Shown here: piece by piece, positions 13,415 through 29,477 of the stretch
Numbering within the stretch: the first letter of the stretch is position 1
How the letters are laid out: each line of letters opens with the position of its first letter
NCBI RefSeq assembly: GCF_035628975.1
Contig: NZ_DASPIS010000032.1
Coordinates: forward strand, 12,987 to 76,986
Direction of reading: 5' to 3'
From: Azospirillum sp.
GTDB lineage: Bacteria > Pseudomonadota > Alphaproteobacteria > Azospirillales > Azospirillaceae
DNA length: 64,000 nucleotides
Position numbers and translations under genes: made by a program
Notes under the pieces: generated by a model
What the model saw: only the letters and a program-made list of their open reading frames with translations
The model's database searches: none
Told to the model about the DNA's origin: nothing

Positions 13415-13990
13415 GCCCAGCCATATGGTCGTGACCTGCTGCAATCCAAGCCTTTGCGGATCGGCACCTGATGGGGCGCAAGGCTTCGATCCCTCTTCGG
13501 ACCCGGTGGCGCTTCGGCAGAATCGTTTAAGGCGGGTAAAGATATTTCCAGGATGAAATAAACAATATCCTTCATGAAATCGAATTCATGCTTGCCATTC
13601 TCCAACAGTGGTAAGTAATAAAAATAATGTGCGGAAGTCCTTCGATTAGGGGCCCCTAATGCCGTGTCGGGTGCAAGAACGACCATGAACGACATTGTTG
13701 CAAAACGGGCGGACTGCCGGCACCGGCAGTGTGGGACTCGAACCGTACGCATTCTCATCGATCGGATAACCAGCCTCGGCAAGGTGGACCCGCGCATGGG
13801 CGCCTGACCCTCGCACCGGACCGGCGCATGCGGCGATGCAATGCCCAATTGCGCATGCACAGTCCGGCTCGGCCGTTCGACCGCGCTCCCTTCGGTGGTC
13901 GTCGGCCCCCTTGTCGGATCTCCCGTCCCGGGGGATGGCTGTAGGCAATATTCGGGTGTCGATGTGGACATGAATTACCGGGAGACGGCA

Positions 13991-15571
13991 ATGTCGCCGC
14001 TGATGCAGGCGACGGCAGGCTTCGATCCGTCTCTGATTCTGGAAATGGCCCAGAAAATTCGCGAGCCACTTTACATCGTCAGGAACCGTGAAGGCCGTCT
14101 GGGAGCTTCGACCCGGCCGCCGGATTTCGCGGCGGAGCGGCTGGAGCCCGTCGCGACCCTGCCGCCGCTTTATCCCGAATGGCTGGGTGATCGCAGTTTC
14201 CAGGAAGCTCACGGCTGCCGCTTTGCCTATGTGGCGGGGGAGATGGCGCGGGGCATCGCCACGCCGGCGATGGCGGTCGCCGCCGCCCGTGCCGGGCTGC
14301 TCGGCTTCTACGGCAGTGCCGGGCTTTCGCCGCAGCGGGTGCAGGAGGGCATCGCCGAAATCCGCGCGGCGCTTTGTCCGCAGGCGCCGGGCTGGGGCGC
14401 CAACCTGATCCACAGTCCCAACGATCCCGCCCTGGAAACCGCGGTCTGCCGCCTGTTCCAGCAGCAGGGGGTGCGGCGCGTCTCGGCATCGGCCTTCATG
14501 GCGCTGACCCCGTCGGTGGTGGAACTGTCCGCCAAGGGGCTGCGCCGCGATCCGGCCACCGGTGCGGTCCGCCGTCTGACCCACATCTTCGCCAAAGTGT
14601 CGCGCGCCGAGGTGGCCCGCCAGTTCATGGCGCCGGCCCCGCAGCGCATGCTGGCCGATCTGGTGGCGCAGGGCATCCTCACCGCCGAAGAAGCCGAACT
14701 TGCCGCCGCCATCCCGGTGGCGGAGGACATCACGGTGGAGGCGGATTCCGGCGGCCACACCGACAATCGTCCGCTGACCGTCCTGTTTCCGATCATCCAG
14801 CGCCTGCGCGACGAGATGGTCGCCGCCCATGGCTATGACCGCAACATCCGCGTCGGTGCCGCCGGCGGGCTGGGGACACCCGCAGCGCTGGCCGGCGCCT
14901 TCGCCATGGGGGCGGCCTATGTCGTCGTCGGATCGGTGAACCAGTCGGCGGCGGAGGCTGGGCAGCCGCTGTCGGTCCGCCGCATGCTGGCCGACCTGTC
15001 CAGCACCGACGTGACGATGGCGCCCGCCGCCGACATGTTCGAGATGGGCGTGAGGGTCCAGGTGATGAAGCGGGGCACCATGTTCCCCTTCCGCGCCCAA
15101 CGCCTGTACGAGCTGTACTGCCGCCATTCCGGCCTGGACGACCTTCCCGCCGCCGAGCGCGCGACCCTCGAAAAGGATGTCTTCCAGGCGCCGCTGGAGG
15201 AGATCTGGCGCCAGACCCGTGAGCATTTCGCCGTCCGCGACCCGGCGGAACTGGCGCGTGCCGAGGCCGATCCCCGCCACCGCATGGCCCTGGTCTTCCG
15301 CTGGTACCTGTTCAACGCCGCCCGCTGGCCGACGCAGGACGACGGCGCGCGCCGCCATGACTTCCAGGTCTGGTGCGGCCCGGCGATGGGCGCCTTCAAC
15401 GACTGGGTGAAGGGCAGCTTCCTGGAAGCGGCGGACAAACGCACGGTCGAACAGATCGCCCGCAACCTGCTGGAAGGGGCCGCCGTGGTGACCCGCGCCC
15501 AGCAGATGCGCACGGCGGGCTTGGCCGTACCGGCCGCGGCCTTCACCTGGGTGCCGCGCCGGCTCGCCTGA
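13991..15571 (+). CDS. pfaD: PfaD/Pfa1-type enoyl-ACP reductase of PUFA-synthase-like PKS
   Basis: LPPLYPEWLGDRSF, AGEMARGIA, EADSGGHTDNRP, RVGAAGGLGTP, GSVNQ, APAADMFEMGV, FQVWCGPAMGAFN; RBS ggag before ATG 13991 (alternative 13970). Confidence 0.92.
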   Translation: MSPLMQATAGFDPSLILEMAQKIREPLYIVRNREGRLGASTRPPDFAAERLEPVATLPPLYPEWLGDRSFQEAHGCRFAYVAGEMARGIATPAMAVAAARAGLLGFYGSAGLSPQRVQEGIAEIRAALCPQAPGWGANLIHSPNDPALETAVCRLFQQQGVRRVSASAFMALTPSVVELSAKGLRRDPATGAVRRLTHIFAKVSRAEVARQFMAPAPQRMLADLVAQGILTAEEAELAAAIPVAEDITVEADSGGHTDNRPLTVLFPIIQRLRDEMVAAHGYDRNIRVGAAGGLGTPAALAGAFAMGAAYVVVGSVNQSAAEAGQPLSVRRMLADLSSTDVTMAPAADMFEMGVRVQVMKRGTMFPFRAQRLYELYCRHSGLDDLPAAERATLEKDVFQAPLEEIWRQTREHFAVRDPAELARAEADPRHRMALVFRWYLFNAARWPTQDDGARRHDFQVWCGPAMGAFNDWVKGSFLEAADKRTVEQIARNLLEGAAVVTRAQQMRTAGLAVPAAAFTWVPRRLA

Positions 15572-15627
15572 TCCAGCCTGACAAGCGCGCTTCCGCCCCA
15601 ATCCCCCTCCGAACATCCGAGACCGCC

Positions 15628-18600
15628 TTGAAGAACCGCCACCCCATCGCGATCGTCGGCATCGGCGCCATGTTTCCGGGTTCCGGCACCACGCACGGCT
15701 TCTGGCGCGACATCCTCGCCGGCCGGGATTGCATCGGCGACGTGCCCGCCACCCATTGGCTGGTTGAGGATTTCTACGACCCCGATCCCTCGGCGCGGGA
15801 CAAGACCTATTGCCGCCGCGGCGCCTTCCTGCCCCCGGCCACGCTGGACCCGCTGGAGTTCGGCATCCCGCCCCAGGCGCTGAGCGCCACCGACACCGCG
15901 CAGCTGTTGGCGCTGATCGTCGCCAAGGAGACGCTGGACGAGGCCTGCCGCACGCAGTTCCGCGACATCGACCGCAGCCGGACCAGCATCGTGCTGGGCG
16001 TGGCGTCCGCCACCGAACTGGTGGGGACCATGGGGGCGCGGCTGCAGCGGCCGGTCTGGGTCAAGGCGCTCCGCGAGGCCGGCCTGCCGGAGGACGAGGT
16101 GACGGCCATCTGCGACCGCATCTCGTCGCAGTATGTGGAATGGCAGGAAAGCAGCTTCCCCGGCGTGCTGGGCAATGTGGTGGCGGGGCGCATCGCCAAC
16201 CGGCTCGACCTGGGCGGCACCAACTGCGTGGTGGATGCCGCCTGCGCCAGTTCGCTGTCGGCTCTGCTGATGGCGATGAACGAGTTGGAGCTGGGCCATT
16301 CCGACATGGTCATCAGCGGCGGTGTCGATGCCCTGAACGACATCTTCATGTACATGTGCTTCAGCAAGACGCCGGCCCTGTCCAAGAGCGGCGATTGCCG
16401 TCCCTTCTCCGATGCGTCGGACGGCACGATCGTCGGCGAGGGGCTGGGCCTGTTCGCCCTGCGCCGGCTGGAGGATGCCGAGCGCGACGGCAACCGCATC
16501 TATGCCGTCATCCGGGGGATCGGGTCCTCGTCCGACGGCCGCGCCACCAGCGTCTATGCCCCGCGGCCGGAGGGGCAGGCGGTGGCCTTGCGCCGGGCCT
16601 ATGCCGATGCCGGCCATGACCCGCGCAGCGTCGAACTGGTCGAGGCCCACGGCACCGGCACCCGCGCCGGCGACCTCGCCGAATTCACCGCGCTGACCCA
16701 GGTGTTCCGGGAAGCCGATGCGGAGGCCGGGGCCTGGTGCGCCATCGGATCGATCAAGTCGCAGATCGGCCACACCAAGGCCGCAGCCGGCTCCGCCGGG
16801 CTGCTGAAGGCGGCGCTGTCGTTGCATCAGAAGGTCCTGCCGCCCACCATCAAGGTCGACCGGCCCGACAGCCGCCTGAAGCTGGAGAGCAGCCCCTTCT
16901 ACCTGAACACCCGTGCCCGGCCCTGGGTGAAGGCGGACGGCCCCCGCCGCGCCTCCGTCAGTTCCTTCGGCTTCGGCGGCAGCAACTATCACGTGGCGCT
17001 GGAGGAGTATACCGGACCGCAAGCCGCGTCCCGCCTGTGGGCGGGCGGCGCGCTGCTGCTGCTGGGGGCCGCCGATGCGCGGTCCCTGGCCGAGGCGGCG
17101 CGTGCCCTTGGTGCCCGCGTGGAGAAGGATGGGCTGGAGGCGGTCGCCCGCGACAGCCAGATCGCCTTCGATCCGCGGTCGCGCCACCGCCTCGCCATCG
17201 TCGCCGCCGATGCCCGGCAGTTCGAGGCGCGCTTGGCGACCGCGCTCAAGCAGACGGGCGCCTTCAGCGCTCCCGGAATCCATCTGGCAGTGGGCGAGGG
17301 TAAGGGCAAGGGTGGGGGCGGCAAAACCGCCTTCCTGTTCCCCGGCCAAGGCAGCCAGTATGTGAGCATGGGCGCCGATCTGGCCGTGGCCTTCGACGAG
17401 GCCCGCGTGGTCTGGGACGGGCAAGCCGCTCTGCCGACCGTGCCGGGCCAGTCGCCGCTGCATCGCGTGGTCTTCCCGCCGCCCGCCTTCACCGGCGAGG
17501 AGGGGGAGGCGCAGGAAGCGGTCCTCACCCGCATGATCCACGCCCAGCCCAGCATCGGCACGGCGAGCCTCGCCCTGCTGGCGGTGCTGGAGCGTGCCGG
17601 AATCCGCGCCGATGCCGTCGCCGGCCACTCCTTCGGCGAGATCACGGCGCTGTGTGCCGCCGGTGTCCTCGACCGCGACACCGCGCTGTCCCTGGCCGCC
17701 GAACGTGCCCGCTGCATGGAAGAGGCCGCATCCGGCAGCGACGGCGCCATGATCGCGGTGGCCGCCGGGCGCGAGCGGGTGGAGCCGCTTCTGCAGGGTC
17801 TGGACGTGGTGCTGGCCAACGACAACGGGCCGGAACAGGTGGTCCTGTCCGGCGCCCGCGCTGCTGTAGAGAATGCCGCGACCCGGCTGGAGGCCGAGGG
17901 GCTGCGGGTGGTCCGGCTGAAGGTCGCCAGCGCCTTCCATTCGCCGGTGGTCGCGCAGGCCGCCGAAACCTTCCGCAGCGTCCTCGACGGCACGGCGTTC
18001 GGGTCCTTCGCGATCCCGGTCTACGCCAACCTCACCGCCGCACCCTACGCCGATGCCGAGGTCCGCGACCTGCTGGCCGGGCAGATCGCCGGCACGGTCC
18101 GCTTCCGCGAGACGGTCGAGGCGCTTTATGCCGACGGTGTCCGGACCTTCGTGGAGGTCGGGCCGGGTTCGGTGCTGAACGGTCTGGTGGCGCAATGCCT
18201 GGGTGGCCGTCCGCATCTGGCGGTTGCCCTGGACCGGCGCGGGGCCCACGGCGTCGCCTCCCTGCTGGACGGCTTGGGCGCGCTGGCGGTCCATGGCGTG
18301 CCCGTCGATTTCCAAGCGCTGTGGACCGGCTTCGCCGAAGAGCGCAAGCCCAAGCCCGCATCGCCCGCCGCCGTCCGCGTCAGCGGCGCCAATTTCGGCA
18401 AGATCTACCCGCCGCCGGGCGGTGCTGCCGCGCTGCCGAAGCCCAATCCGCCCCGCCCCGCCATTGCGCCGCCCGCGCCGACTCCCCTGGCACCGGCTCA
18501 ATCCGCCCCGGTTTACTCCCCGTCCATTGAAGAAGCTCCGATCATGGTCACGAACTCTCCCGCTCCGCAGCCGGCGCCCATCCCCGTCGCGACCGCGCCG

Positions 18601-21012
18601 GTTGAGACGATCTATCACCATGTCGCCGACGCCCATGCCGCCTTCCAGCGCGCCATCGCCGAAAGCCATCAGGCTTTCCTGGCGGTCGCCGGTCAGGCGA
18701 TCCAGAGCCTGAGCGGCGTGCCGGCATGGCCGGCGGCAGCACCCGCCGTCCCGGTGGCGCCGACCATGGCGCCGAGCATGCCGGCCCCCGCTCCCATGCC
18801 GGCCTTGGCGCCGGTGCCGCCGGCTGCGCCGGTCATGCCGGTGCAGAGCCAGACGTCCGTTGCCGCAGCGCCGCAGCATGTCGCTCCGGCCAGGGTGGAA
18901 CCTGTTCAGGCCAAGCCCCATCCGGTGACGGCACCCGCCGCCCCCGTTGCCGCTCCGCCCAAGGTCAACGCCCGGGACATCGTGCTGGCGGTGATCGCCG
19001 ACAAGACCGGCTACCCGGTGGACATGCTGACGGCGGACATGGAACTGGAAGCCGGTCTCGGCATCGACTCCATCAAGCAGGTGGAGATTTTCTCGACCTT
19101 GCAGGACCGCATTCCGGCGCTGGGCAATGCCGACATGCGCGAACTGAACGCGCTGAAGACCATCGGTCAGATCCTCGCCATGGCCGACAGCCGCAGCGGC
19201 GGCGCCGCCGCCCCCACGGCTGCCCCGGCGCCCGTGGTGGCGGCAGCGGTTCCGGCGGCCAAGCCGACGGCTCCGTCCGTCGATGTCGGCGCGCTGTTCA
19301 TGGGGCTGGTGGCGGAGAAGACCGGCTATCCCGTCGAGATGCTGAGCCCGGAGATGGAGCTTGAGGCTGGTCTCGGCATCGATTCCATCAAGCAGGTCGA
19401 GATCTTCTCGGCCCTGGTCGACCGCCTGCCGGAACTGGCCTCGGTCGAGATGCGCGAATTGACCGCGCTCAAGACCGTCGGCGCGGTGATCGACCGCATC
19501 AAGGGCGACGCCCCGGCTGCCCAGCAAACGCCGGCCCAGATCCAGACCCAGGCCCAGACCCAGGCTCTGCCCGCGTTATCGGCAGGCACCATCCGCACCT
19601 GCTCCGTCTTGGAAGAGCGGAAAGCGGGCGGTGCCGACATGTTGCGCGGCCTGACCAGCATCGCCGTCGTGCCGGATTCGTCCGGTGTCGCCGCCGAACT
19701 GGTGGCTCTGCTGTCGGCCAAGGGCATCGCCGCCCGGATCGCCGAGCTGCCGGGCGGGCAGGACGACGCGGTGCTGTTCCTGGCCGGGCTCGACGGGGCC
19801 GATGCCGCCTCGGCCGCCGATCTGCACTGGCGCGCGCTTGCCGCCGCCAAGGCCGCCGACGCCCGCTTCGGCAAGACCGGCGGCGCCTTTGTCACTGTCG
19901 AGAAGGGTGGTGAGGCTTGGCTGGGGCTTGGCGGTCTCGTCCTGACCGCGGCGCATGAATGGCCGGCGGCGCGGGTCAAGGCCATCGAACTGGAGCCGGG
20001 AAGCCGCTCCGCCGCCGACCTCGCCCGTGCTCTCGCCGCGGAGATTGCCACCGGCGACGGCGATGCGGAGGTCCGCCTTGCCGCAGACGGCAAGCGTCTG
20101 GTGCGGACCCTGCGCGAGGGAGAGGCGGCCGACGGCCCGCTGCCGCTGGAGCAGGGCGCGGTGATCGTCGTCTCCGGCGGTGCCCGCGGCGTGACCGCCG
20201 TCGCGTTGGAGCAGCTGTCCCGCCGCATCCGCCCGACCCTGGTCATCCTGGGCCGCAGCGATCCCGGCGCGGCGCCGGTCCTGCCGGGCATCGCCGAGGA
20301 TGCCGACGAAACCGCGGTCCGCCGGGCGGTGATCGCCGGTCCCGGCGCCGGCAGGCAGCCGCGCGAGATCGAGGCGATGGTCAAGGCCATCCTGTCCGCC
20401 AACGAGGCGCGCGCCACGTTGCGCCGGTTGGAAGCGGCCGGTGCCCGCGTCCGCTACTGCCGCGCCGACGTGCGCGACGCGGCGTCGGTCGCGCAGGCGC
20501 TGGCGGCGGTCCGTGCCGAGGCCGGGCCGATTTCCGGCATCGTGCATGGGGCCGGCGTGCTGGCCGACAAGCGCATCGGCGACAAGACGCGCGACCAGTT
20601 CGACGCCGTCTTCGGCACCAAGGTGGAGGGAATCGCCAATCTGCTGGCCGCCACCCGCGAGGATCCGTTGCGCGTCATCTGCCTGTTCTCTTCCATCGCC
20701 TCGCTGCACGGCAATGCCGGGCAGTGCGACTACGCCATGGCCAACGGCGTGCTGAACGCCGTGGCGCGGGCCGAGGCGGCACGCCGGCCGGACTGCACGG
20801 TCAAGGCCATCGCCTGGGGGCCGTGGGACGGCGGCATGGTCGGACCTGCGTTGAAACAGCATTTCCGCCGCATGTCCGTCGATCTGATCGCGCCGGCGGA
20901 CGGCGCCGACTTCATGCTGCGCGAACTGGCGCAGCCGCCGGCCGGCGACGCGGTCGTCTCCTGCATCGGGCGTTCGGCCGCCGCGGGTACCGCCATCGGA
21001 CGGGCGGCATGA
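15628..21012 (+). CDS. pfaA: PfaA/Pfa2-type iterative PKS: KS-MAT-ACP-ACP-KR
   Basis: KS DAACASS / EAHGTGT / GHTKAAAG; MAT GHSFGE and AFHS; two ACPs with KTGYP..LEAGLGIDSIK; KR SGGARGV...DYAMAN; probable TTG start. Confidence 0.92.
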   Translation: MKNRHPIAIVGIGAMFPGSGTTHGFWRDILAGRDCIGDVPATHWLVEDFYDPDPSARDKTYCRRGAFLPPATLDPLEFGIPPQALSATDTAQLLALIVAKETLDEACRTQFRDIDRSRTSIVLGVASATELVGTMGARLQRPVWVKALREAGLPEDEVTAICDRISSQYVEWQESSFPGVLGNVVAGRIANRLDLGGTNCVVDAACASSLSALLMAMNELELGHSDMVISGGVDALNDIFMYMCFSKTPALSKSGDCRPFSDASDGTIVGEGLGLFALRRLEDAERDGNRIYAVIRGIGSSSDGRATSVYAPRPEGQAVALRRAYADAGHDPRSVELVEAHGTGTRAGDLAEFTALTQVFREADAEAGAWCAIGSIKSQIGHTKAAAGSAGLLKAALSLHQKVLPPTIKVDRPDSRLKLESSPFYLNTRARPWVKADGPRRASVSSFGFGGSNYHVALEEYTGPQAASRLWAGGALLLLGAADARSLAEAARALGARVEKDGLEAVARDSQIAFDPRSRHRLAIVAADARQFEARLATALKQTGAFSAPGIHLAVGEGKGKGGGGKTAFLFPGQGSQYVSMGADLAVAFDEARVVWDGQAALPTVPGQSPLHRVVFPPPAFTGEEGEAQEAVLTRMIHAQPSIGTASLALLAVLERAGIRADAVAGHSFGEITALCAAGVLDRDTALSLAAERARCMEEAASGSDGAMIAVAAGRERVEPLLQGLDVVLANDNGPEQVVLSGARAAVENAATRLEAEGLRVVRLKVASAFHSPVVAQAAETFRSVLDGTAFGSFAIPVYANLTAAPYADAEVRDLLAGQIAGTVRFRETVEALYADGVRTFVEVGPGSVLNGLVAQCLGGRPHLAVALDRRGAHGVASLLDGLGALAVHGVPVDFQALWTGFAEERKPKPASPAAVRVSGANFGKIYPPPGGAAALPKPNPPRPAIAPPAPTPLAPAQSAPVYSPSIEEAPIMVTNSPAPQPAPIPVATAPVETIYHHVADAHAAFQRAIAESHQAFLAVAGQAIQSLSGVPAWPAAAPAVPVAPTMAPSMPAPAPMPALAPVPPAAPVMPVQSQTSVAAAPQHVAPARVEPVQAKPHPVTAPAAPVAAPPKVNARDIVLAVIADKTGYPVDMLTADMELEAGLGIDSIKQVEIFSTLQDRIPALGNADMRELNALKTIGQILAMADSRSGGAAAPTAAPAPVVAAAVPAAKPTAPSVDVGALFMGLVAEKTGYPVEMLSPEMELEAGLGIDSIKQVEIFSALVDRLPELASVEMRELTALKTVGAVIDRIKGDAPAAQQTPAQIQTQAQTQALPALSAGTIRTCSVLEERKAGGADMLRGLTSIAVVPDSSGVAAELVALLSAKGIAARIAELPGGQDDAVLFLAGLDGADAASAADLHWRALAAAKAADARFGKTGGAFVTVEKGGEAWLGLGGLVLTAAHEWPAARVKAIELEPGSRSAADLARALAAEIATGDGDAEVRLAADGKRLVRTLREGEAADGPLPLEQGAVIVVSGGARGVTAVALEQLSRRIRPTLVILGRSDPGAAPVLPGIAEDADETAVRRAVIAGPGAGRQPREIEAMVKAILSANEARATLRRLEAAGARVRYCRADVRDAASVAQALAAVRAEAGPISGIVHGAGVLADKRIGDKTRDQFDAVFGTKVEGIANLLAATREDPLRVICLFSSIASLHGNAGQCDYAMANGVLNAVARAEAARRPDCTVKAIAWGPWDGGMVGPALKQHFRRMSVDLIAPADGADFMLRELAQPPAGDAVVSCIGRSAAAGTAIGRAA

Positions 21013-24000
21013 GCCGGTTCCCGCCCATCGCCGTCATCGGCCACGGCTGCGTGCTGCCGGGCGCCCTCAGCCCGGCGGAGCTCTGGCAGGCCGTCGTCGA
21101 GGGGCGGGATCTGCTGCGCCCGGTGCCGCCGGGCGTCTGGCGCGTCGATACCGCAAAGGCGCTGTCGCCCGAGGCGCCCGAGCGTTCCGCGACCGACAAG
21201 GGCGGCTATGTGCAGGGCTTCGACGCCATCTTCGATCCCAACGGCTTCGCCTGCCCGGCGGAGGAACTGGCCGGGCTCGATCCGCTGGTGCTCTGGCTGG
21301 TCCATAGCGGGCGCGAGGCGCTGCGCGAGGCGGGGCTGAACATCGCGCCGGGCGGGCGCTGCGGTTTGATCGCCGGCAACCTGTCCTATCCCACCGCCAG
21401 CCTCAGCGCCTTTGCCGAATCGGTCTGGCTGGACCGGGAGGGGCCGAAGCCCGCCAACCGCTTCTCGTCGGGCCTGCCGGCGCAGCTGGCCGCCCGTGCC
21501 CTCGGCCTGCAGGGGCCGGCCTTCTGCCTGGATGCCGCCTGTGCCTCCTCGCTCTATGCCGTCAAGCTGGCCTGCGACCAGCTGCATGACGGGACCGCCG
21601 ACCTGATGATCGCGGCGGGCGTCAACCGCGGCGACGACCTGTTCCTTCATATGGGCTTCACCGCGCTGAACGCCCTCAGCCCCACCGGCCGCAGCCGGCC
21701 GTTCCACCGCGAAGCCGATGGGCTGATCCCGGCCGAGGGGGCTGCCTGTGTGGTGCTGAAGCGGATGGACGACGCGGTGCGCGACGGAGACCGCATCCTC
21801 GGCGTCATCCGCGGCATCGGCCTGTCGAACGACGGGCGCAGCCGAGGCTTCCTTGTTCCCGACGCCGGAGGCCAGGAGCGCGCCATGGCCGACGCCTATG
21901 CCCAGGCGGGTTTCGCGCCGGAAGCGGTATCGCTGGTGGAATGCCACGCCACCGGAACGGCGCTTGGCGACGCCACCGAGATCGCCAGCATGGGCCGCAT
22001 CTTCGCCGGCTTGCGGGATGTGCCGATCGGGTCGCTGAAGTCCAACCTGGGCCACCTGATCGCCGCCGCCGGTCTGGCCGGCATGGTCAAGGTGATCCAG
22101 GCGATGGCGGCCGGCATCCGCCCGCCGACCCTGCATGCCGACGCCGCACCGCTGGACGGCATCGGCGCCTCGCCCTTCCGCCTGCTGGACCGGGCGGAGC
22201 CGTGGGAGGTGGATGGGCCGCGCCGCGCCGGAATCAGCGCCTTCGGCTTCGGCGGCAACAACGCGCATCTGGTGCTGGAGGAGTGGCACCCCGCCACCGT
22301 GTCCGTTCCGGTTGTCGCTCCCCCGCCGCCGTTGCGTGTGGCGGTCGTCGGCCTTTCCGTCGCCACCGCCGCCGATGACTTCGCCGCGGCCTTGGCCGCA
22401 CCTCCTTCGGGAGACGGCCCGCGCGTCCTGGACAGCATCACGCTGGACCTCGCCACTATCCGCGTCCCGCCTGCCGACCTGCAGCATGCCCTGCCGCAGC
22501 AGCTTCTGGCGATGAAGGCGGTGGCCCGCGCCGTCGCCGACGCCCCGGCCTTGCCGGCAGCCACCACCGGCGTGCTGATGGGCATGGGCTGCGACGCCCA
22601 GGTGGCGCGGCGCGGCCTGGGCGTGCGGCTTGCCGACCTGTGCGGCCCGGATGCCAGTGTCGATCTCGGTCCCCCGCTGAACGCGGCCGGCGTCATCGGC
22701 ACCATGCCCAACATCGTCGCCAACCGCTTCAACGCCCAGTTCGACTGGCGCGGCCCCAGCTATTCGGTATCGGCGGAGGAGTTGTCGGGGCTTGCCGGGT
22801 TGCGCATCGCCGCCCGCGCCCTGGTGACGGGCGAGCTGGACGCGGCGGTCGTCGGCGCGGTCGATCTGTCCTGCGAGCCGGTGCACCGCAGCGCGCTCGC
22901 CGCCCTGCGCCCCGACCTCGCTACCCCCGGTGACGCCGCCGTCGTTCTGGTGCTGCGCCGGGTGGAGTGCGCCGAGGCCGCCGGCGAACCGATCCACGCC
23001 ATCCTCGACCTGTCCTCCGCCACCGATTCCGCCGAAGCGGAGTTCACCATCGCCGGACCGCAAGGGGCGAGTCCCGTCACCAGCCGCTTCGGCCATGCCC
23101 ATGCCGCGTCCGGCCTGCTGCATGTGGCCGCCGCCGTGGTCGCCTGCAGTGGCCGCATGAAGCCCGGAGACGGCGCTGCCCAACCCTGGCTGGATGCCGG
23201 TCGCCTGCGCGCCCGCGTGAGCGTCGTGGCTCTGGGCGGGGCGACCGACGGGCTTCTGGTCGAAAGCGGCGATGTCTCGGAGCCGGCCGTACCGCCGCCG
23301 GACACGCGCCTGCATTGGTTCGCCGCCGCCAGCCGGGCGGAGCTGTGCGCGCGCATCCGGCGCGGCGAGGATGGCGGGCAGGGGCCGGTGCGGCTGGCCT
23401 TCGCCTGTCCGGCCGGCAAGGAGGCCGACACCCTGGCGCGCGCGCTGGCCCTTGCCGAGGGGCGCGAGGCCACCGCCGACGGTATCCAGTTCCGCGAGCG
23501 ACCGCTCGGCGGCCGGCTGGCCCTGGTCTTCACCGGGGCGGCGGCGGCTTACGAGGGAATGGGGCGCGAGCTTTTCCTGTCCATCCCCGATGTCGGCCGG
23601 AGCGTGACCGCGCGCTTCCCTATCCTCGCCCATGCGGCGGAGCGGCTGTACGGATCGGCGGAACCGCTCGACGCGATGGCGCAGCTGCAGACCTGCGCCC
23701 TGATCTGCCAGACCCATGCGGAGGTCAGCCGCAGCGTGCTCGGCCTGCGGCCTGCGGCTGTGATGGGCCTGTCCTCCGGCGAGACCAACGCGCTGTTCGC
23801 CGCGGGCATCTGGTCGGACATGGGCGCCATGTTCGCGGAAATCGACGCATCGGGCATCTATGGCCGCCATCTGACCGGCGACTGCCTTGCAGCCGCGCGA
23901 GTCTGGGGGCAGGCGGATGCCGCCGACTGGCGCAACTGGCGCCTCCTGGCCCCGATCGAGGAGGTGGAGGCGGCGCTGGCCGGCCTGCCCCGCGTGTCGA

Positions 24001-27000
24001 TCACCATCGTCAATGCGCCGCAGGACTGCGTGATCGGTGGCGACGCCGATTCCTGCCGTCAGGCGATCGCGCGCATCGGGGCGCACCGCGCCTTGCCGCT
24101 CGGCCAGGACATGGTGGTGCATTGCGCAGAGATGGCGCCCTGCGCCCCGGTCTGGCGCCGGATTCACAGCCGCGAGACGACACCGCCCGAGTGCATCGCC
24201 GTCTATGCCAATGCCTTCGGCGAAGCCTACCGGCCGTCGGAGGAGCTGTGCGCCGAGGCGCTGACCCGTCAGGCGATGGAAAAGGTGGACTTTCCCCGCA
24301 CGATCCGCCGCGCCCATGACGATGGGGTGCGGATCTTCGTCGAGCATGGTCCGCGCAATGCCCTGACCCGCTCCATCGCCGCCACGCTGGCCGACCGCGA
24401 GCATCTGGCGGTCAGCCTGGACCATCCCGGCCGTGCGCCGCTGGAACAGCTGGCCCATGTGGCGGCCGAGCTGTTCGCCGCCGGTCAGGAGCCCGCCATG
24501 GCCGAGGTCGCCCGCCGCCTGGAGCGCCGGACCGCCCCGCCGCCGGCCCAGCCCCTGACCTTCGCCGCCCATGCCGCGCCCGTCGCGGTCGCTCTCGGAC
24601 AGCCGATGCCCCCCGCACCGCCCCTGCCGCCGGTCGCCGACCTGCCGCCGCCCGATCTGGCCGCCCGCCGCCCGCTGGACGAGGCGCCGGAGCCTGAGCC
24701 TGTGATCGCCGATGTGCATCGTCCGGCCGCGCCCGGCGTTTCCACACGGGCGCCGGTTCCGCCGTCCGACAGCCCGATCGCCCGCATCCTCGCCCGTACG
24801 GCGGAGCTTCACACCGGCTATCTGAAAACCGCGTCGGACCTGCACCGGAGCTATCTGCAAGGTTTCGGGGTGGCGACAGTGACCGCTCTCCCTCTCCCCC
24901 CCGCTCCCCCTCTCCCCCCCGCTCACGCGCAAACTTCGTTTGCGCTGACGCGACAGGCGGACCTTTGGTCCGCTGAAAGCGGGGAGAGGGTCGGGGTGAG
25001 GGGGATGCATGGGGTGGATTCTCGGGATACGGCCGCCGCGCTTCCCCCTCACCCTAACCCTCTCCCCGGGGGGGAGAGGGCATCGTCACCCCCGGGCCGT
25101 CCGCTCTGGGACCGCGCCCAGCTGGAAATCCTGGCGTCGGGCAAGGTATCCGACATCTTTGGTCCGCTCTTCGCGCAGCAGGACGGCTACGCGCGTCAGG
25201 TCCGTATGCCGGAGCCGCCGCTGCTGCTGGTGGACCGCGTCATTTCCATCACCGGCGAACCCGGCAGCATGGGGCTTGGCTCCATCGTCACCGAGACGGA
25301 TGTCACGGCCGACAGCTGGTATCTGCACAACGACCGCATGCCGGTGGGGCTCGCCATCGAATCCGGACAGGCCGACCTGCTGCTGATCTCCTGGCTGGGC
25401 GCCGATTTCCGCAACAGGGGCGAGCGCGTCTACCGCCTGCTGGGCTGCGAGATGACCTACCATGAGGGTGGCCTGCCGCGGGTGGGCGACACGCTGCGCT
25501 ACGACATCCACATCGACGGCCATGCCCGCATGGGCGAGGTCGGGCTGTTCTTCTTCCATTACGATTGCCGCATCGGTGATCGGCTGGTGCTGTCGGTCCG
25601 CAACGGGCAGGCCGGATTCTTCACCGACCAGGAATTGGCCAACTCCGGCGGCGTGCTGTGGAGCGCCGAGGAGGACCGGCCCAGGGACGGCGCGCGCCTG
25701 GACCCGCTGCCCTGTCCGTCGCGCCACCGCGCCTTCACCGCCGAACAGCTCGACCTCTGGACCGCCGGCCGGGCCTTCGCCTGTTTCGGCGAGGGGTTCG
25801 AACTGGCCGGCAGTCACCAGCGCACCCCGGCGATCCCGCAGGGGCGCATGCGCCTGATCGACAGCGTGACCGCCTTCCAACCGCAGGGCGGCCCCTGGGG
25901 ACGGGGGTATCTGCGGGCGGAAAGCCATGTCCCGGCCGACGCCTGGTTCTATGCCGGCCACTTCAAGAACGATCCCTGCATGCCCGGCACGCTGATGGCC
26001 GAGGGGGCGGTGCAGGCGGTCGCAACCTTCATGGCAGCCGGCGGCTTCACCATCGGACGCGATTCCTGGCGGTTCGAGCCGGTGCCGGACGAGCCCGCCC
26101 GCTTCGTCTGCCGCGGACAGGTGGTCCCGGACGCCGCCCATCATCTTGTCTACGAAGTCTTCGTCGAGGAGATCGAGGACGGCCCGACGCCCATCGTCCG
26201 CGCCGCCCTGCTGTGCAGCGCCGATGGCTTCAAGGTCTTCCATTGCCGCGCCTTCGCCGTGCGGATGGTGCCCGACTGGCCGCTCGGCCATGGGCGTCAT
26301 GCCCTGCCGGCGCTGGCGGAGGCGCCGCGCATCGTCGGCACCCGCGGCGACGTGCGCGGCGATTACGAGGCGCTGCTGGCCTGCGCCTGGGGGGCACCGT
26401 CCCTGGCCTTCGGCAGCATGTATGCCCGCTTCGATGCCGGGCGGGTGCCGCGCCTGCCGGGGCTGCCCTATCACTTCATGTCCAGCGTGGTCTCGGTGAA
26501 CTGCCCGGCCGGGGAGCCGACCGTGGGCGGCACGCTCCTCGTCGATTACGAGGTGAAACCGGAGGCGTGGTACTTCGCCCGGAACGCGGCGCCGGTGATG
26601 CCCTTCTGCGTGCTGATGGAGGTGCTGCTGCAGCCCTGCGGCTGGCTGGCCTCCTACATGGGCTTCGCGCTCGCCTCCACCGAGGATCTGGCGATCCGCA
26701 ACTTGGACGGCGACGCCGCCCGCGTGCTGGCCGAAGTGACGCCCGCCGACGCCCGCGTCCGTACCGAGGCGACGCTGACCCGCTTCTCCCGCGCCGGCGG
26801 CATCACCCTGATCGCCTTCAAGGTCCGGGCCTGGGTCGACGACCGGCCGCTGATGGAGCTGGAAACCTCCTTCGGCTTCTTCGCGTCCGCCGCGCTGGCG
26901 AAGCAGAACGGCCTGCCGCCCTTGCCGGCCGATGATGCGCGGGGGATTCCGCCCGCCATGCCCGTCGTGGAGCCGCGCGGCGCGAAACTGGCGGACGGAA

Positions 27001-29477
27001 TGCTGAGCATGGTGGACGAGGTCACCGGCTGGTGGCCTGAGGGCGGCGCCAGCGGCCTGGGACTGGTGCGCGGCCGGCAGGTGGTCGATCCGGAATCCTG
27101 GTACTTCAAGGCCCATTTCTTCCAGGATCCGGTTCAGCCCGGTTCGCTGGGGGTCGAGGCGCTGCTGCAATTGCTGGAGCGCGCCATGATCCTGGCGGGG
27201 CTGGACAGCGAATTGGACTCGCCGCGCTTCGAAGGGGCCGCTCTGGACCAGACGCTACGCTGGAAGTATCGCGGTCAGGTGGTCCCCACCAACCGGACCG
27301 TCACCACGGAAATCGAGATTGTGCGGATCGAGCGCGACGAGCGCGGCATTCTGGCGGTTGCCCGCGGCAGCCTGTGGGCCGACGATCTGCGCATCTACGA
27401 GGTTGACGGGCTGGCGGCGCGTCTGGTGCCCGGCGGTGGCGGCAATGGCGGCATCCGCCTGGATTTGGACAACGCCCCCTGGCTTGGCGACCATCGCCCG
27501 ACCCATACGGCCCCCGCGGTTCCCCTGACCTGTCTTGCCGACATCATGGCGGCGGCGGTTTCGGGCGAATGCGTCGTCTCCCTTGAGGATGTCCGGGTTC
27601 AGCGCTGGGCGACGGTGCCGGTCACGCTGGTTCCGGAGGTGGAGCCTGACGGCCGCGTGACCTTGCGGGATGGCGGCAACATGCTGGCGACCGGCCGGGT
27701 GATCCGGGCGGACGAGTGGCCGGCGCCGCCGCGGCCGTTCGATCCGCTGGAGGATGCCCGGCCGTCGCCATGCCCCTATGCCGCCGCGGAGCTGTTCCAC
27801 GGCCCGGCCTTCCAGATCCTGAGCGGGCTGCGCACCGGCTCCGGCGGCGCGTCCGCCGATCTGGACGCGGTCAAGGCTGCGCGGGTGCCGGGGCTGATCG
27901 GTCCTGCGCTGCTGGATGCCGGTCTCCATGCCACCCCCCGCCATGCCCCCGAACTCTGGTGGGGGGAACAGGCGGGGGGGATGCTCGCCTATCCCAGCGC
28001 CATCGAGCGGCTGAGCCTTTTCGGCCCGACGCCCTGCGACGGCATGGTCCGCATCGAGGTGCGTGCGCTTCCCCTGGACGCCCAAGGGCGCGCCCGGTCG
28101 CGCCTGCAGTGGATTGCCGAGGGCAGGGTCTGGGCCGAGATGGACCTCGCCGACGTGCTGTTCCCCAAGGGCGCGCTCGGCAAGGCTCCCGCCCTGGCGC
28201 GGCAGGCGTTCCTGCGCGACCGCAAGGCGGCGCCCGGCGTGCGCCTGTCGCGGGCGGAGAGCGGTACGAGCCGCCTCAGCGCCCGCGAGGTCGCGGCGAG
28301 CAACTGGCTGCCCGGAACCCTGGAAAGCCTCTATGGCGTGTCGGGCAACCCCTCCGACATGGCCCACTCCATCGCGGCGAAGGAGCATGCGGCGGCACAG
28401 CTCGGCGTCCATCCGGGGGTGGTGGCGGTCGAGGGCGATGTCGCCCGCTGCCCCGGCGCGCCGCTCAACCCGGTTCCGCTGTCGGTCACGCGCGACGGTG
28501 CCGACTGGGTGGTGACGGGCACGCTCCCCGCCGCTCCCGACATCTTGCCGCTGCGGACCTTCTGGCGCGCCCATCTGGGGACCGGCGACTGGCCGGTGGA
28601 GGACCTGTTCCTGGCGCTGGCCGCCGAATTCGTCGGTCAGGTGCGCGTGGCGGAGCCGAACGGGCTCGCCCGCATCCGCGACCGCGGCGCGCTGTTCCTC
28701 GGAAACCATCAGGTGGCGGTGGAATCGCTGACCTTCACGCTGGCGGCCGCCGCCCTGACCGGCAGGCCGATCCTGACCGTCGCCAAGGCGGAGCATCGCA
28801 ACACGTGGCTTGGCAGCCTGCTGGCCTTGTCCGGCAGCGATTCTGGGCTTCGCCTGCCGCAGATGATGCTGCTGTTCGACCGCGAAGATCCGGCGGCCAT
28901 GCTGGGGCTGATGGAACAGGCGCGCGACGCGGTGAGGCGCGATGGCGTGTCGATCATGGTGCATGCGGAGGGCACGCGGTCGCTGTCCTGCCGGACCCCG
29001 GTGTCCCGGCTGTCCGGGGTGTTCCTGGATCTGGCGGCGAGGCTGGAGGTTCCCATCGTGCCGGTCCGCTTCGCCGGCGCCCTGCCGGTCGATCCCGCGC
29101 CGGAGCGGCTGGAGTTCCCGCTGGGCTTCGCTCGTCAGGACATCCATATCGGTCGCCCGCTGTGGCCGGAGGAGTTGGCGAGCCTGCCCCTGGCGGAGCG
29201 CAAGAGGGCCGTCCTCGACGCCATCAACGGGACTGGCCCATCGCTGGCCGGCGAGGGTCCCAACGAGCCGCGCCCGGACTTCGAAGCGGCGGCGATGGCC
29301 ATGGCGGCAACGCGCGGACTCAGCCTGCCCCGCGCGGCGACGCTCCAGGCGGTGTTGAACGCGATCCCAAGCGATCGTCCGCTCGCCCGTCTCGCCCGCA
29401 GCATCGCGGCGGGGGAGGGAGCGGAGGAGGTCGACCCGTGGCTGTCCGCCCTGGCCGGCTGGTTTCGAACTCAGTAG
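21009..29477 (+). CDS. pfaC: Pfa3 (PfaB/C-like) PKS: KS-CLF-AT-(DH'-DH)x2-PKS-type DH-acyltransferase (AGPAT-like)
   Basis: KS DAACASS / ECHATGT / KSNLGH; CLF lacking Cys (SAEELS); AT GLSSG; FabA-type HFKNDPCMPG and HFFQDPVQPG; PKS-DH WLGDH..P, LFHGPAFQ, LLDAGLH; LPLAT NHQVAVES and EGTRS; ATGA overlap with the pfaA stop. Confidence 0.92.
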   Translation: MSRFPPIAVIGHGCVLPGALSPAELWQAVVEGRDLLRPVPPGVWRVDTAKALSPEAPERSATDKGGYVQGFDAIFDPNGFACPAEELAGLDPLVLWLVHSGREALREAGLNIAPGGRCGLIAGNLSYPTASLSAFAESVWLDREGPKPANRFSSGLPAQLAARALGLQGPAFCLDAACASSLYAVKLACDQLHDGTADLMIAAGVNRGDDLFLHMGFTALNALSPTGRSRPFHREADGLIPAEGAACVVLKRMDDAVRDGDRILGVIRGIGLSNDGRSRGFLVPDAGGQERAMADAYAQAGFAPEAVSLVECHATGTALGDATEIASMGRIFAGLRDVPIGSLKSNLGHLIAAAGLAGMVKVIQAMAAGIRPPTLHADAAPLDGIGASPFRLLDRAEPWEVDGPRRAGISAFGFGGNNAHLVLEEWHPATVSVPVVAPPPPLRVAVVGLSVATAADDFAAALAAPPSGDGPRVLDSITLDLATIRVPPADLQHALPQQLLAMKAVARAVADAPALPAATTGVLMGMGCDAQVARRGLGVRLADLCGPDASVDLGPPLNAAGVIGTMPNIVANRFNAQFDWRGPSYSVSAEELSGLAGLRIAARALVTGELDAAVVGAVDLSCEPVHRSALAALRPDLATPGDAAVVLVLRRVECAEAAGEPIHAILDLSSATDSAEAEFTIAGPQGASPVTSRFGHAHAASGLLHVAAAVVACSGRMKPGDGAAQPWLDAGRLRARVSVVALGGATDGLLVESGDVSEPAVPPPDTRLHWFAAASRAELCARIRRGEDGGQGPVRLAFACPAGKEADTLARALALAEGREATADGIQFRERPLGGRLALVFTGAAAAYEGMGRELFLSIPDVGRSVTARFPILAHAAERLYGSAEPLDAMAQLQTCALICQTHAEVSRSVLGLRPAAVMGLSSGETNALFAAGIWSDMGAMFAEIDASGIYGRHLTGDCLAAARVWGQADAADWRNWRLLAPIEEVEAALAGLPRVSITIVNAPQDCVIGGDADSCRQAIARIGAHRALPLGQDMVVHCAEMAPCAPVWRRIHSRETTPPECIAVYANAFGEAYRPSEELCAEALTRQAMEKVDFPRTIRRAHDDGVRIFVEHGPRNALTRSIAATLADREHLAVSLDHPGRAPLEQLAHVAAELFAAGQEPAMAEVARRLERRTAPPPAQPLTFAAHAAPVAVALGQPMPPAPPLPPVADLPPPDLAARRPLDEAPEPEPVIADVHRPAAPGVSTRAPVPPSDSPIARILARTAELHTGYLKTASDLHRSYLQGFGVATVTALPLPPAPPLPPAHAQTSFALTRQADLWSAESGERVGVRGMHGVDSRDTAAALPPHPNPLPGGERASSPPGRPLWDRAQLEILASGKVSDIFGPLFAQQDGYARQVRMPEPPLLLVDRVISITGEPGSMGLGSIVTETDVTADSWYLHNDRMPVGLAIESGQADLLLISWLGADFRNRGERVYRLLGCEMTYHEGGLPRVGDTLRYDIHIDGHARMGEVGLFFFHYDCRIGDRLVLSVRNGQAGFFTDQELANSGGVLWSAEEDRPRDGARLDPLPCPSRHRAFTAEQLDLWTAGRAFACFGEGFELAGSHQRTPAIPQGRMRLIDSVTAFQPQGGPWGRGYLRAESHVPADAWFYAGHFKNDPCMPGTLMAEGAVQAVATFMAAGGFTIGRDSWRFEPVPDEPARFVCRGQVVPDAAHHLVYEVFVEEIEDGPTPIVRAALLCSADGFKVFHCRAFAVRMVPDWPLGHGRHALPALAEAPRIVGTRGDVRGDYEALLACAWGAPSLAFGSMYARFDAGRVPRLPGLPYHFMSSVVSVNCPAGEPTVGGTLLVDYEVKPEAWYFARNAAPVMPFCVLMEVLLQPCGWLASYMGFALASTEDLAIRNLDGDAARVLAEVTPADARVRTEATLTRFSRAGGITLIAFKVRAWVDDRPLMELETSFGFFASAALAKQNGLPPLPADDARGIPPAMPVVEPRGAKLADGMLSMVDEVTGWWPEGGASGLGLVRGRQVVDPESWYFKAHFFQDPVQPGSLGVEALLQLLERAMILAGLDSELDSPRFEGAALDQTLRWKYRGQVVPTNRTVTTEIEIVRIERDERGILAVARGSLWADDLRIYEVDGLAARLVPGGGGNGGIRLDLDNAPWLGDHRPTHTAPAVPLTCLADIMAAAVSGECVVSLEDVRVQRWATVPVTLVPEVEPDGRVTLRDGGNMLATGRVIRADEWPAPPRPFDPLEDARPSPCPYAAAELFHGPAFQILSGLRTGSGGASADLDAVKAARVPGLIGPALLDAGLHATPRHAPELWWGEQAGGMLAYPSAIERLSLFGPTPCDGMVRIEVRALPLDAQGRARSRLQWIAEGRVWAEMDLADVLFPKGALGKAPALARQAFLRDRKAAPGVRLSRAESGTSRLSAREVAASNWLPGTLESLYGVSGNPSDMAHSIAAKEHAAAQLGVHPGVVAVEGDVARCPGAPLNPVPLSVTRDGADWVVTGTLPAAPDILPLRTFWRAHLGTGDWPVEDLFLALAAEFVGQVRVAEPNGLARIRDRGALFLGNHQVAVESLTFTLAAAALTGRPILTVAKAEHRNTWLGSLLALSGSDSGLRLPQMMLLFDREDPAAMLGLMEQARDAVRRDGVSIMVHAEGTRSLSCRTPVSRLSGVFLDLAARLEVPIVPVRFAGALPVDPAPERLEFPLGFARQDIHIGRPLWPEELASLPLAERKRAVLDAINGTGPSLAGEGPNEPRPDFEAAAMAMAATRGLSLPRAATLQAVLNAIPSDRPLARLARSIAAGEGAEEVDPWLSALAGWFRTQ
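24886..25081 (-). repeat. Palindromic repeat copy 2, in frame inside pfa3
   Basis: Reverse complement aligns with 1402-1569; contains gcgcaaacttcgtttgcgc (24927-24945) and cccctcaccctaaccctctcccc..gggagaggg. Confidence 0.85.

Follow-up and report, generated by a model that had tools for sequence, protein, structure and literature searches.

The Pfa3 protein of Azospirillum ends in a lysophospholipid acyltransferase (LPLAT) domain that is real and conserved. We identified it in a window of 64,000 nucleotides (the whole stretch of DNA that was analysed) from an Azospirillum species, at the end of the last gene of a type-L, myxobacterial-style Pfa/PUFA-synthase-like operon, pfa1-pfa2-pfa3. Judging from its sequence, the domain is likely to be active, because its motifs are intact, its dN/dS is 0.24-0.35 and the operon carries no thioesterase. 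We consider it rather probable that the domain off-loads the finished chain from the acyl carrier protein (ACP) to a glycerol-phosphate-type acceptor, most probably 1-acyl-sn-glycerol-3-phosphate, without release of free acid.

The reading frame of pfa3 is contained in a continuous ORF on the forward strand (19959-29477). The true start codon, the ATG at 21009, shares bases with the pfa2 stop (ATGA), and the gene (21009..29477, forward strand) encodes a product of 2822 amino acids with the order KS-CLF-AT-(repeat-element linker)-FabA-type DH x2-PKS-type DH-LPLAT, as assigned from the ORF, the start and the Pfam domains. The repeat element in the AT-DH linker is translated. Upstream, pfa2 (15373..21012, forward strand) encodes KS-AT-2xACP-KR and matches TIGR02813 PfaA with 1314 bits; its start codon is uncertain, and the longest pfa2 ORF runs into pfa1. 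The latter gene (13841..15571, forward strand) encodes an enoyl reductase of the NMO type plus a FabD helical insert. Pfa2 is the presumed source of the acyl-ACP donor, and Pfam finds two ACPs only and no DH in it. A domain search of the operon genes revealed no thioesterase and no other release enzyme in pfa1-pfa2-pfa3. The operon is neighboured by genes for an opposite-strand serine hydrolase, a cNMP-binding CPBP protease, a LysR regulator and a DUF2391 protein, and three PPTase genes are located elsewhere in the same genome. We know of no report of PUFAs from Azospirillum.

The proposal made in a preliminary description of this DNA, that LPLAT/PlsC-like blocks are fused to the synthase, is backed by the Pfam match, the profile alignments, the fold and homology. 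PF01553 (Acyltransferase) matches residues 2556-2688 (28674..29072, forward strand) far above chance level: the whole protein scores 32.5 bits and the excised domain 37.7 bits (E 2.2e-9), where the cut-off is 23. Together with this Pfam match, an H-x4-[D/E] dyad (here with Glu), blocks II, III and IV and a PlsC-like fold place the domain in the LPLAT/GPAT superfamily. Against TIGR00530, the NCBIfam model for PlsC, it scores 36.3 bits, under the curated cut-off of 102.95, and the NCBIfam PlsC model NF011593 is missing among the NCBIfam matches of Pfa3. The terminal domain is a divergent LPLAT rather than a canonical PlsC. The span originally assigned to it, 28600-29477, does contain the LPLAT, but its start was placed too late: family alignment and the AlphaFold model delimit a conserved folded terminal acyltransferase module that begins at about 28314 (28314..29474, forward strand; residues 2436-2822). 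These approximately 390 C-terminal residues start with a small helix/beta subdomain, continue with the LPLAT alpha/beta core and end in a helical tail.

Block I of the core, NHQVAVES (28704..28727, forward strand), holds the putative catalytic residues His2567 (28707-28709) and Glu2572 (28722-28724), and in both HMMER and hhalign Glu2572 aligns with the Asp of T. maritima PlsC (VANHQSLMD versus LgNHQvaiE). The block II equivalent is L-L-F-D-R with Arg2625 (28869..28883, forward strand), which aligns with FLDR of the same PlsC and also with VDR of a second LPLAT clade, the KHQSAWET clade, represented in the same genome. In block III, V-H-A-E-G-T-R-S (28959..28982, forward strand), His2652 replaces the Phe of FPEGTR in PlsC; H2652 and G2655 stand at 100% in the family alignment. 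Block IV, P-I-V-P-V-R-F-A-G-A-L-P (29052..29087, forward strand), is defined by the family and PlsC alignments. LLFDR, HAEGTRS and PIVPVRF thus correspond to FLDR, FPEGTRS and VPVLPV of 5KYM, the T. maritima structure, in a sequence match that is weak (E 0.25 for the single sequence, 0.0022 for the profile) and for which a fold search was needed. The motif positions reported earlier, NHQVAVES at 28704 (His codon 28707), VAKAEH at 28779, VHAEGTRS at 28959 and IVPVRF at 29055, are all accurate and in frame; LLFDR was absent from that motif list. VAKAEH, there counted among the LPLAT/PlsC blocks, does belong to a conserved family block, V-A-K-A-E-H-x3-W-x-G (28779..28814, forward strand), in which the family alignment gives A2592 and W2600 at 100%, H2596 at 95% and G2602 at 97.5%. 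It is, however, not canonical block II, an assignment ruled out by HMMER and hhalign, which put that block at LLFDR.

Structure prediction yielded a model of the module with a pLDDT of 91.7 and a pTM of 0.91. The top four Foldseek matches in the PDB, 5KYM PlsC (E 2.5e-5), 8E4Y GPAT1, 5F2Z PatA and 5KN7 LpxM, are all LPLAT/GPAT-superfamily structures, each with a probability of at least 0.99, and TM-scores are modest, at 0.52 when normalised to PlsC. The core is preceded by two helices (model residues 78-88 and 94-106), which may or may not correspond to the N-terminal two-helix membrane-embedding motif of PlsC. A hydrophobic anchor was looked for in the module and none was found (maximum KD19 1.42), so that access to the membrane is at best putative.

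The Glu of block I is a family trait. The pattern NH[QE]x3E[ST] occurs in 121/121 homologues from a word search, Sorangium and Aetherobacter Pfa3 among them, with the N, H and E of the block present in every one. An unbiased profile search added 143 further representatives, and all but one carry H..E; the exception, P0246, has Tyr instead of His and retains the Glu. Asp at the dyad position was found in none of the 121 homologues and none of the 143 representatives, which rules out a local or degenerate variant of the dyad. The preliminary description had presented HX4E as a notable departure from the canonical motif. This does not hold, as Glu is universal in the Pfa3-type family and is also found in LpxM, an active relative (PMC3087551), and in the second LPLAT clade of the same genome. 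A literature search for D-to-E mutagenesis of PlsB gave no citable data. Comparison with seven Azospirillum orthologues indicates purifying selection (the dN/dS of 0.24-0.35 given above), and every motif residue is invariant among them.

We infer the donor, the acceptor, the acylated position and the nature of the product as follows. The acyl chain would be built on the two Pfa2 ACPs and offered as acyl-ACP. Glu2572, which in this family invariably takes the place of the usual Asp, would orient and polarise His2567, which would in turn deprotonate the free hydroxyl of the acceptor, most probably 1-acyl-sn-glycerol-3-phosphate, held by Arg2625 of block II (FDR) and by E-G-T-R2657 of block III. 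Attack of this hydroxyl on the thioester would then give phosphatidic acid and holo-ACP, with no free fatty acid. Such a direct hand-over from ACP to sn-2, which the preliminary description had also suggested, is consistent with intact motifs for catalysis and phosphate binding, with purifying selection and with the thioesterase-free operon.

The same chemistry might be directed at another acceptor, either glycerol-3-phosphate (at sn-1, or at sn-2 as in mycobacterial PlsM) or lyso-PE, lyso-PG or lyso-ornithine lipid, which we regard as unlikely, though worth weighing. The domain scores under the PlsC family cut-off, human GPAT1 ranks second among its fold matches, and the extra N-terminal subdomain, the C-terminal helical tail and the invariant His2652 are all absent from PlsC. 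Reverse-order acylation pathways exist in bacteria (PMC10593935). In addition, some subclades of the Pfa3-type family have lost Arg from block II and Thr-Arg from block III, and the acceptor side can therefore change. Against this, both FDR and EGTR are kept in the Azospirillum protein, as the block II Arg and GTR jointly are in 104/121 homologues, and PlsC is the best match in both sequence and fold. A mainly hydrolytic domain is improbable. It would act as a thioesterase and leave other enzymes to activate the free acid and put it into lipid. The second activity of LpxM is that of a thioesterase. This HX4E enzyme is among the fold matches, the title of its PDB entry (5KN7) refers to a 'dual activity mechanism', and the operon is without a dedicated thioesterase; yet blocks II and III, the ones for acceptor binding, are conserved under selection, and pure hydrolysis would not need them. 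A catalytically dead or purely structural domain, serving for example for docking or membrane tethering with Glu in place of the canonical Asp, is highly improbable. The motif does depart from the textbook HX4D, and homologue P0246 has Tyr for His. Yet the His and the Glu show essentially no variation across more than 260 diverse sequences, all four blocks are retained, and dN/dS is below 0.35. Moreover, HX4E is described as the motif of the LpxM catalytic dyad (PMC3087551), and it prevails in a clade of standalone LPLATs with a PlsC-like annotation.

Transfer from ACP to a glycerol-phosphate-type acceptor remains our preferred reading. A profile search returned relatives in 518 clusters at 50% identity (E<=1e-30). 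Relatives are encoded by at least 529 stretches of species-representative genomes, a few genomes having two; the contig scan for relatives relied on two patterns, one of which includes the Glu, and it serves for taxonomic range only, not for Asp/Glu counts. The best 80 of these at least 529 relatives come from Myxococcota, Alpha-, Beta- and Gammaproteobacteria, Planctomycetota, Acidobacteriota and Cyanobacteria-related MAGs. As a tentative and rather doubtful extension, Pfa3-type terminal acyltransferases may constitute a distinct and very widespread LPLAT family, in which the fixed Glu and the second invariant His (H-x-EGTR) could form a modified catalytic centre specialised for the direct uptake of acyl chains from the megasynthase ACP, and the unusual Azospirillum synthase, with its two ACPs and all dehydratases in Pfa3, might deliver a lipid, perhaps not a PUFA, straight into membrane phospholipid. 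How the products of PUFA synthases exit the enzyme into lipids is still debated, with a thioesterase, a PfaB-type AT and a fused AGPAT all under discussion, and Azospirillum Pfa3 provides one more intact example of a fused AGPAT beyond the myxobacteria. Our analysis also sharpens the definition of the family, with Glu, not Asp, as the fixed partner of the catalytic His in all Pfa3-type domains examined and another invariant His in place of the FPEGTR Phe. Glu2572 and this second His are clear mutagenesis targets for the model of off-loading without free acid. The finding alone does not alter current understanding.

Among other LPLATs, PlsC (T. maritima 5KYM and E. coli PlsC) shares with the Pfa3 domain the PF01553 fold, the four-block layout and the NHQ that opens block I, and its FxDR, EGTR and PxxPV blocks align with those of Pfa3. 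The Pfa3 domain differs in having Glu for Asp and His for the Phe of FPEGTR, in its fusion to a megasynthase, in approximately 75 additional residues at the N-terminus and 110 at the C-terminus, and in its score below the NCBIfam PlsC cut-off. E. coli LpxM, of the same superfamily, is reported to have a conserved HX4E catalytic dyad (PMC3087551) and has a matching fold (5KN7), whereas its acceptor is lipid A rather than a glycerolipid, it has no EGTR-type phosphate block, and identity is only 11%. The second LPLAT of the same genome (G000:C2, locus L002), a standalone protein with KHQSAWET, likewise has Glu at the dyad position. It belongs to the KHQSxWET clade of Azospirillaceae/Rhodospirillales, in which 116 of 120 members carry the Glu and HQx3E[ST], xDR, xGTR and PIVP are in register with the Pfa3 domain (hhalign, E 0.0017); this protein of 260 amino acids, annotated PlsC/LPLAT, is free-standing, with an N-terminal hydrophobic segment and no synthase fusion. 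ElbD of Myxococcus xanthus, an ether-lipid enzyme with the order ACS-ACP-reductase-AGPAT-like, is a carrier-protein megaenzyme that also ends in an AGPAT-like domain with putative acyltransferase activity (PMC9131029). Its upstream part is described as a CoA ligase/reductase and not an iterative PKS-like synthase.

The closest known system is the AGPAT domain of myxobacterial Pfa3 (Aetherobacter, Sorangium and Minicystis; type-L pfa; Gemperlein et al. 2014/2019). Its fusion to the C-terminus of KS-CLF-(AT)-FabA-type DH x2, in an operon with ER, PfaA-like and PfaC-like genes in that order, has been described (PMC4882568, PMC3098273), and direct transfer from ACP to 1-acyl-glycerol-3-phosphate has been proposed for it, worded as 'presumably' or 'speculated' (PMC6731297, PMC4882568, PMC9702510). 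The literature searched, which did not include the primary 2014 paper, contained no report of a biochemical assay on a Pfa3-type AGPAT domain. Azospirillum clusters have previously been noted as syntenic with the myxobacterial ones. The module aligns with Aetherobacter Pfa3 (P0086) at 43% identity over 80% of the query (E 4e-70) and with Sorangium Pfa3 proteins at 43-45% identity over 93-99% of the query. This homology to named Pfa3 proteins, the fusion and operon order, and the signature NH[QE]x3E[ST] ... HxEG ... P-V-P identify the Azospirillum protein as Pfa3-type. In both systems the domain occupies the same C-terminal place after KS-CLF-(AT)-DH-DH(-DH4), the operon order is pfa1(ER)-pfa2-pfa3, the signature NHQx3ES / FDR / HxEGTRS / PIVPVRFxGxLP is identical, and the PPTase gene lies outside the cluster (PMC4882568). 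The Azospirillum system differs in its alphaproteobacterial host, a two-ACP Pfa2 without a C-terminal DH, and the repeat element in the AT-DH linker. The fusion and HX4E are therefore the norm for the known myxobacterial-type family, which makes our finding largely ordinary; the fused domain and its proposed role have already been published for myxobacterial Pfa3, and the Azospirillum protein is a further example.

The C-terminal region of Pfa3, the 2822-aa synthase protein encoded at 21009-29477 on the forward strand, is a real LPLAT domain. Once excised, the region scored 37.7 bits (E 2.2e-9) against PF01553, whose gathering threshold is 23 bits. A profile built from 24 diverse homologues of this terminal module (alignment A1) had a sole significant match among PDB sequences, T. 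maritima PlsC (5KYM), with which it aligned in register at VANHQSLMD/LgNHQvaiE, FLDR/FDR, FPEGTRS/HvEGTRS and VPVLPV/PiVPV. AlphaFold2, run on the same alignment, modeled residues 2436-2822 confidently (mean pLDDT 91.7, pTM 0.91), and the first four Foldseek matches in the PDB were PlsC 5KYM, human GPAT1 8E4Y, mycobacterial PatA 5F2Z and LpxM 5KN7, each with a probability of at least 0.99; lower matches, P-loop and AAA-type ATPases among others, had E >0.02 and probabilities of at most 0.63. TM-scores were modest (0.52 normalised to PlsC), and the module has two additions, a helix/beta subdomain of ~75 residues at its N-terminal end and a helical tail of ~110 residues at its C-terminal end. 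Classification as a canonical PlsC was rejected by the NCBI curated model (TIGR00530, 36 bits vs a cut-off of 103).

These matches bear out the preliminary description in its proposal of a C-terminal LPLAT domain fused to the synthase, and the motifs that it named are in frame: NHQVAVES at 28704 (His codon 28707, Glu codon 28722), VHAEGTRS at 28959, opposite FPEGTRS of PlsC, and IVPVRF at 29055, within the stretch facing VPVLPV. However, its domain start at 28600 lies too far downstream, as both the conserved sequence and the confidently modeled fold set in near residue 2436 (28314), ~290 bases upstream. VAKAEH, also in frame (28779), is not the canonical block II but part of a separate block conserved in the family alignment, AK-x-EH-x3-W-x-G. 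Block II, which had been overlooked, is LLFDR at 28869-28883 (Arg2625), aligned with FLDR of PlsC.

The HX4E motif had been regarded as a variant of the usual HX4D. Its Glu does align opposite the PlsC Asp, but sequence conservation indicates that HX4E is the rule across the Pfa3-type family. Queried with the C-terminal region, a word-indexed search returned 120 full-length relatives, among them Azospirillum proteins of 79-87% identity, the named Aetherobacter Pfa3 (P0086) and many proteins from Sorangium, and under a permissive pattern (D, E, N or Q fifth after His) Glu alone occurred at the homologous site. N2566, H2567 and E2572 are each 100% conserved (121/121 aligned sequences), Q2568 in 98% and S2573 in 97.5%. 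When 1.84 billion representatives were searched exhaustively with a profile, 518 clusters emerged at E<=1e-30; this search uses no word index, and Asp variants could not drop out of it through a change in one column. Among the matches listed, 141 of 143 new sequences showed NH[QE]x3E directly and one more, P0205, reads NHQVGIES. P0246, a full-length relative, reads NYQCRIES, with His replaced by Tyr and the Glu and EGTR retained; this copy may be inactive or altered. Asp was found at the dyad position in none of the 121 aligned and 143 listed sequences. In all listed proteins the match ends near the C-terminus, and the motif stands 204-287 residues before that terminus.

Glu at the dyad position is not exotic among LPLATs. 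A conserved HX4E catalytic dyad motif has been described in E. coli LpxM (PMC3087551), and one of the four other PF01553 genes in this Azospirillum genome, a standalone 263-aa LPLAT on the minus strand (locus L002, G000:C2:77604-77978, ORF 1264-2055), reads KHQSAWET. Its Azospirillaceae/Rhodospirillales clade, annotated at source as 1-acyl-sn-glycerol-3-phosphate acyltransferase or LPLAT family, has Glu in 116/120 homologues and aligns with the Pfa3-type profile with the H, E, DR, GTR and PIVP blocks in register (hhalign, E 0.0017), LLFDR facing VDR. The remaining paralogues read NHSSYLD, NHPSILD and NHPSWWD. The last of these (277 aa; locus L005, G000:C8:70703-71068 region) matched no NCBIfam model; its flanks, by eye, are a CrtI-type desaturase-like ORF and a family-2 glycosyltransferase-like ORF, and the translations give the impression of a possible carotenoid-glycoside ester locus.

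His2652 (28962-28964) is likewise invariant (121/121). It precedes the EGTR Glu by two residues, at the position taken in PlsC by the Phe of FPEGTR, and from strand geometry its side chain should point to the same side as the Glu. The best-supported mechanism is the existing proposal for myxobacterial Pfa3: completed acyl-ACP would serve as donor, the His/Glu dyad would activate 1-acyl-G3P at its sn-2 hydroxyl, with the Arg of block II and the EGTR of block III holding this acceptor, and the product would be phosphatidic acid, without free acid. In domain swaps, exchange of DH4 together with AGPAT alters the product spectrum (PMC6731297, PMC13063552). The literature covered yielded no statement of Glu plus the invariant His two before EGTR as a whole-family signature and no direct assay of a Pfa3 AGPAT domain; because of the latter, donor, acceptor and regiochemistry are inferred. 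Any membrane contact would be peripheral, since the module has no transmembrane-like segment (19-residue Kyte-Doolittle mean peaking at 1.42).

Three rival readings remain. The first is an acceptor other than 1-acyl-G3P. Against it, all four blocks are intact in this Pfa3; 17/121 sequences deviate in block II or block III. A six-member subclade (P0031, P0042, P0060, P0102, P0109, P0112; all NHQ[VI]Q[VIL]ES) keeps His/Glu but lacks both the Arg of block II, reading FDQ or FNQ, and the Thr-Arg of block III, reading EGELxL or EGRLx; it may use a different, non-phosphate acceptor. The second is hydrolytic release by the terminal domain; a scan of the operon and neighbouring genes found no thioesterase encoded in the pfa operon. 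Against the third, an inactive domain, and for a probably functional one, stand the four intact blocks and a dN/dS of 0.24-0.35 across the 387-codon module in seven Azospirillum orthologues (Nei-Gojobori), in which all motif residues are unchanged and 71% of core, 56% of N-terminal subdomain and 48% of tail positions are invariant.

In this 69% G+C window, the ORF listing places pfa3 in a single open frame at 19959-29477 (+), whose leading 350 codons overlap the upstream gene and translate into low-complexity Arg/Gly/Pro sequence. The true start, ATG at 21009, shares the sequence ATGA with the upstream stop and opens a ketosynthase N-terminus, MSRFPPIAVIGHG. Pfam assigns to Pfa3 a KS and a second KS-like (CLF) stretch, an acyltransferase domain, four FabA-type stretches, a PKS-type dehydratase (PS-DH, residues 2258-2359) and, finally, PF01553 'Acyltransferase' (residues 2556-2688). 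The AT-to-DH linker (24886-25081) contains repeat-element-like sequence translated in frame with no stop codon, reading ...SAESGERVGVRGMHGVDSRDTAAALPPHPNPLPGGERASSPP..., with the peptide GERVGVRG at 24981. Since pfa3 is preceded by the PfaA-like pfa2 (KS-AT-ACP-ACP-KR, 15373-21012; TIGR02813 1314 bits, and Pfam) and, before it, by pfa1, an NMO-type enoyl reductase gene (13841-15571), the operon has the pfa1(ER)-pfa2-pfa3 order of the 'type L' layout (PMC3098273, PMC4882568). Pfa2 has just two PP-binding stretches and ends directly after KR, without a dehydratase; the operon's PKS-type dehydratase lies in Pfa3 ahead of the LPLAT module (27400-28200), similar to the extra 'DH4' of Minicystis Pfa3 (PMC6731297). 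The neighbours are an opposite-strand beta-lactamase-family serine hydrolase, a convergent cNMP-binding/CPBP-protease gene, a LysR regulator and DUF2391, followed by cytochrome oxidase subunits. The genome carries three PPTase genes at sites away from the operon, as described for myxobacteria (PMC4882568).

The terminal domain and its cluster are patchily distributed, occurring in 9/121 sampled genomes of the family, all of one genus. Homologues at 79-87% identity with a source name are from Azospirillum species. A scan of species-representative genomes gave at least 529 stretches encoding a relative, a few genomes having two, with the best loci in Azospirillum sp. B21, INR13 and BE72. The best 80 of these include Myxococcota, Planctomycetota, Acidobacteriota, Rhodospirillaceae, Magnetococcales, Methylococcales, Rhodocyclaceae, Dechloromonas, Rhodoferax, and Sericytochromatia- and Cyanobacteria-labelled MAGs. 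In another genome of the family (G089, locus L011) the domain-bearing open frame is only 1493 aa, which may reflect a split or interrupted pfa3. The literature attributes the fused AGPAT to the type-L clusters of myxobacteria (PMC4882568, PMC8436480), and Pal et al. 2021 had already included clusters from Azospirillum melinis, Streptomyces and Tahibacter among the syntenic ones (PMC8436480). The Pfa3 domain studied here thus belongs to an already known kind of protein, whose fusion and proposed role have been described for myxobacteria.
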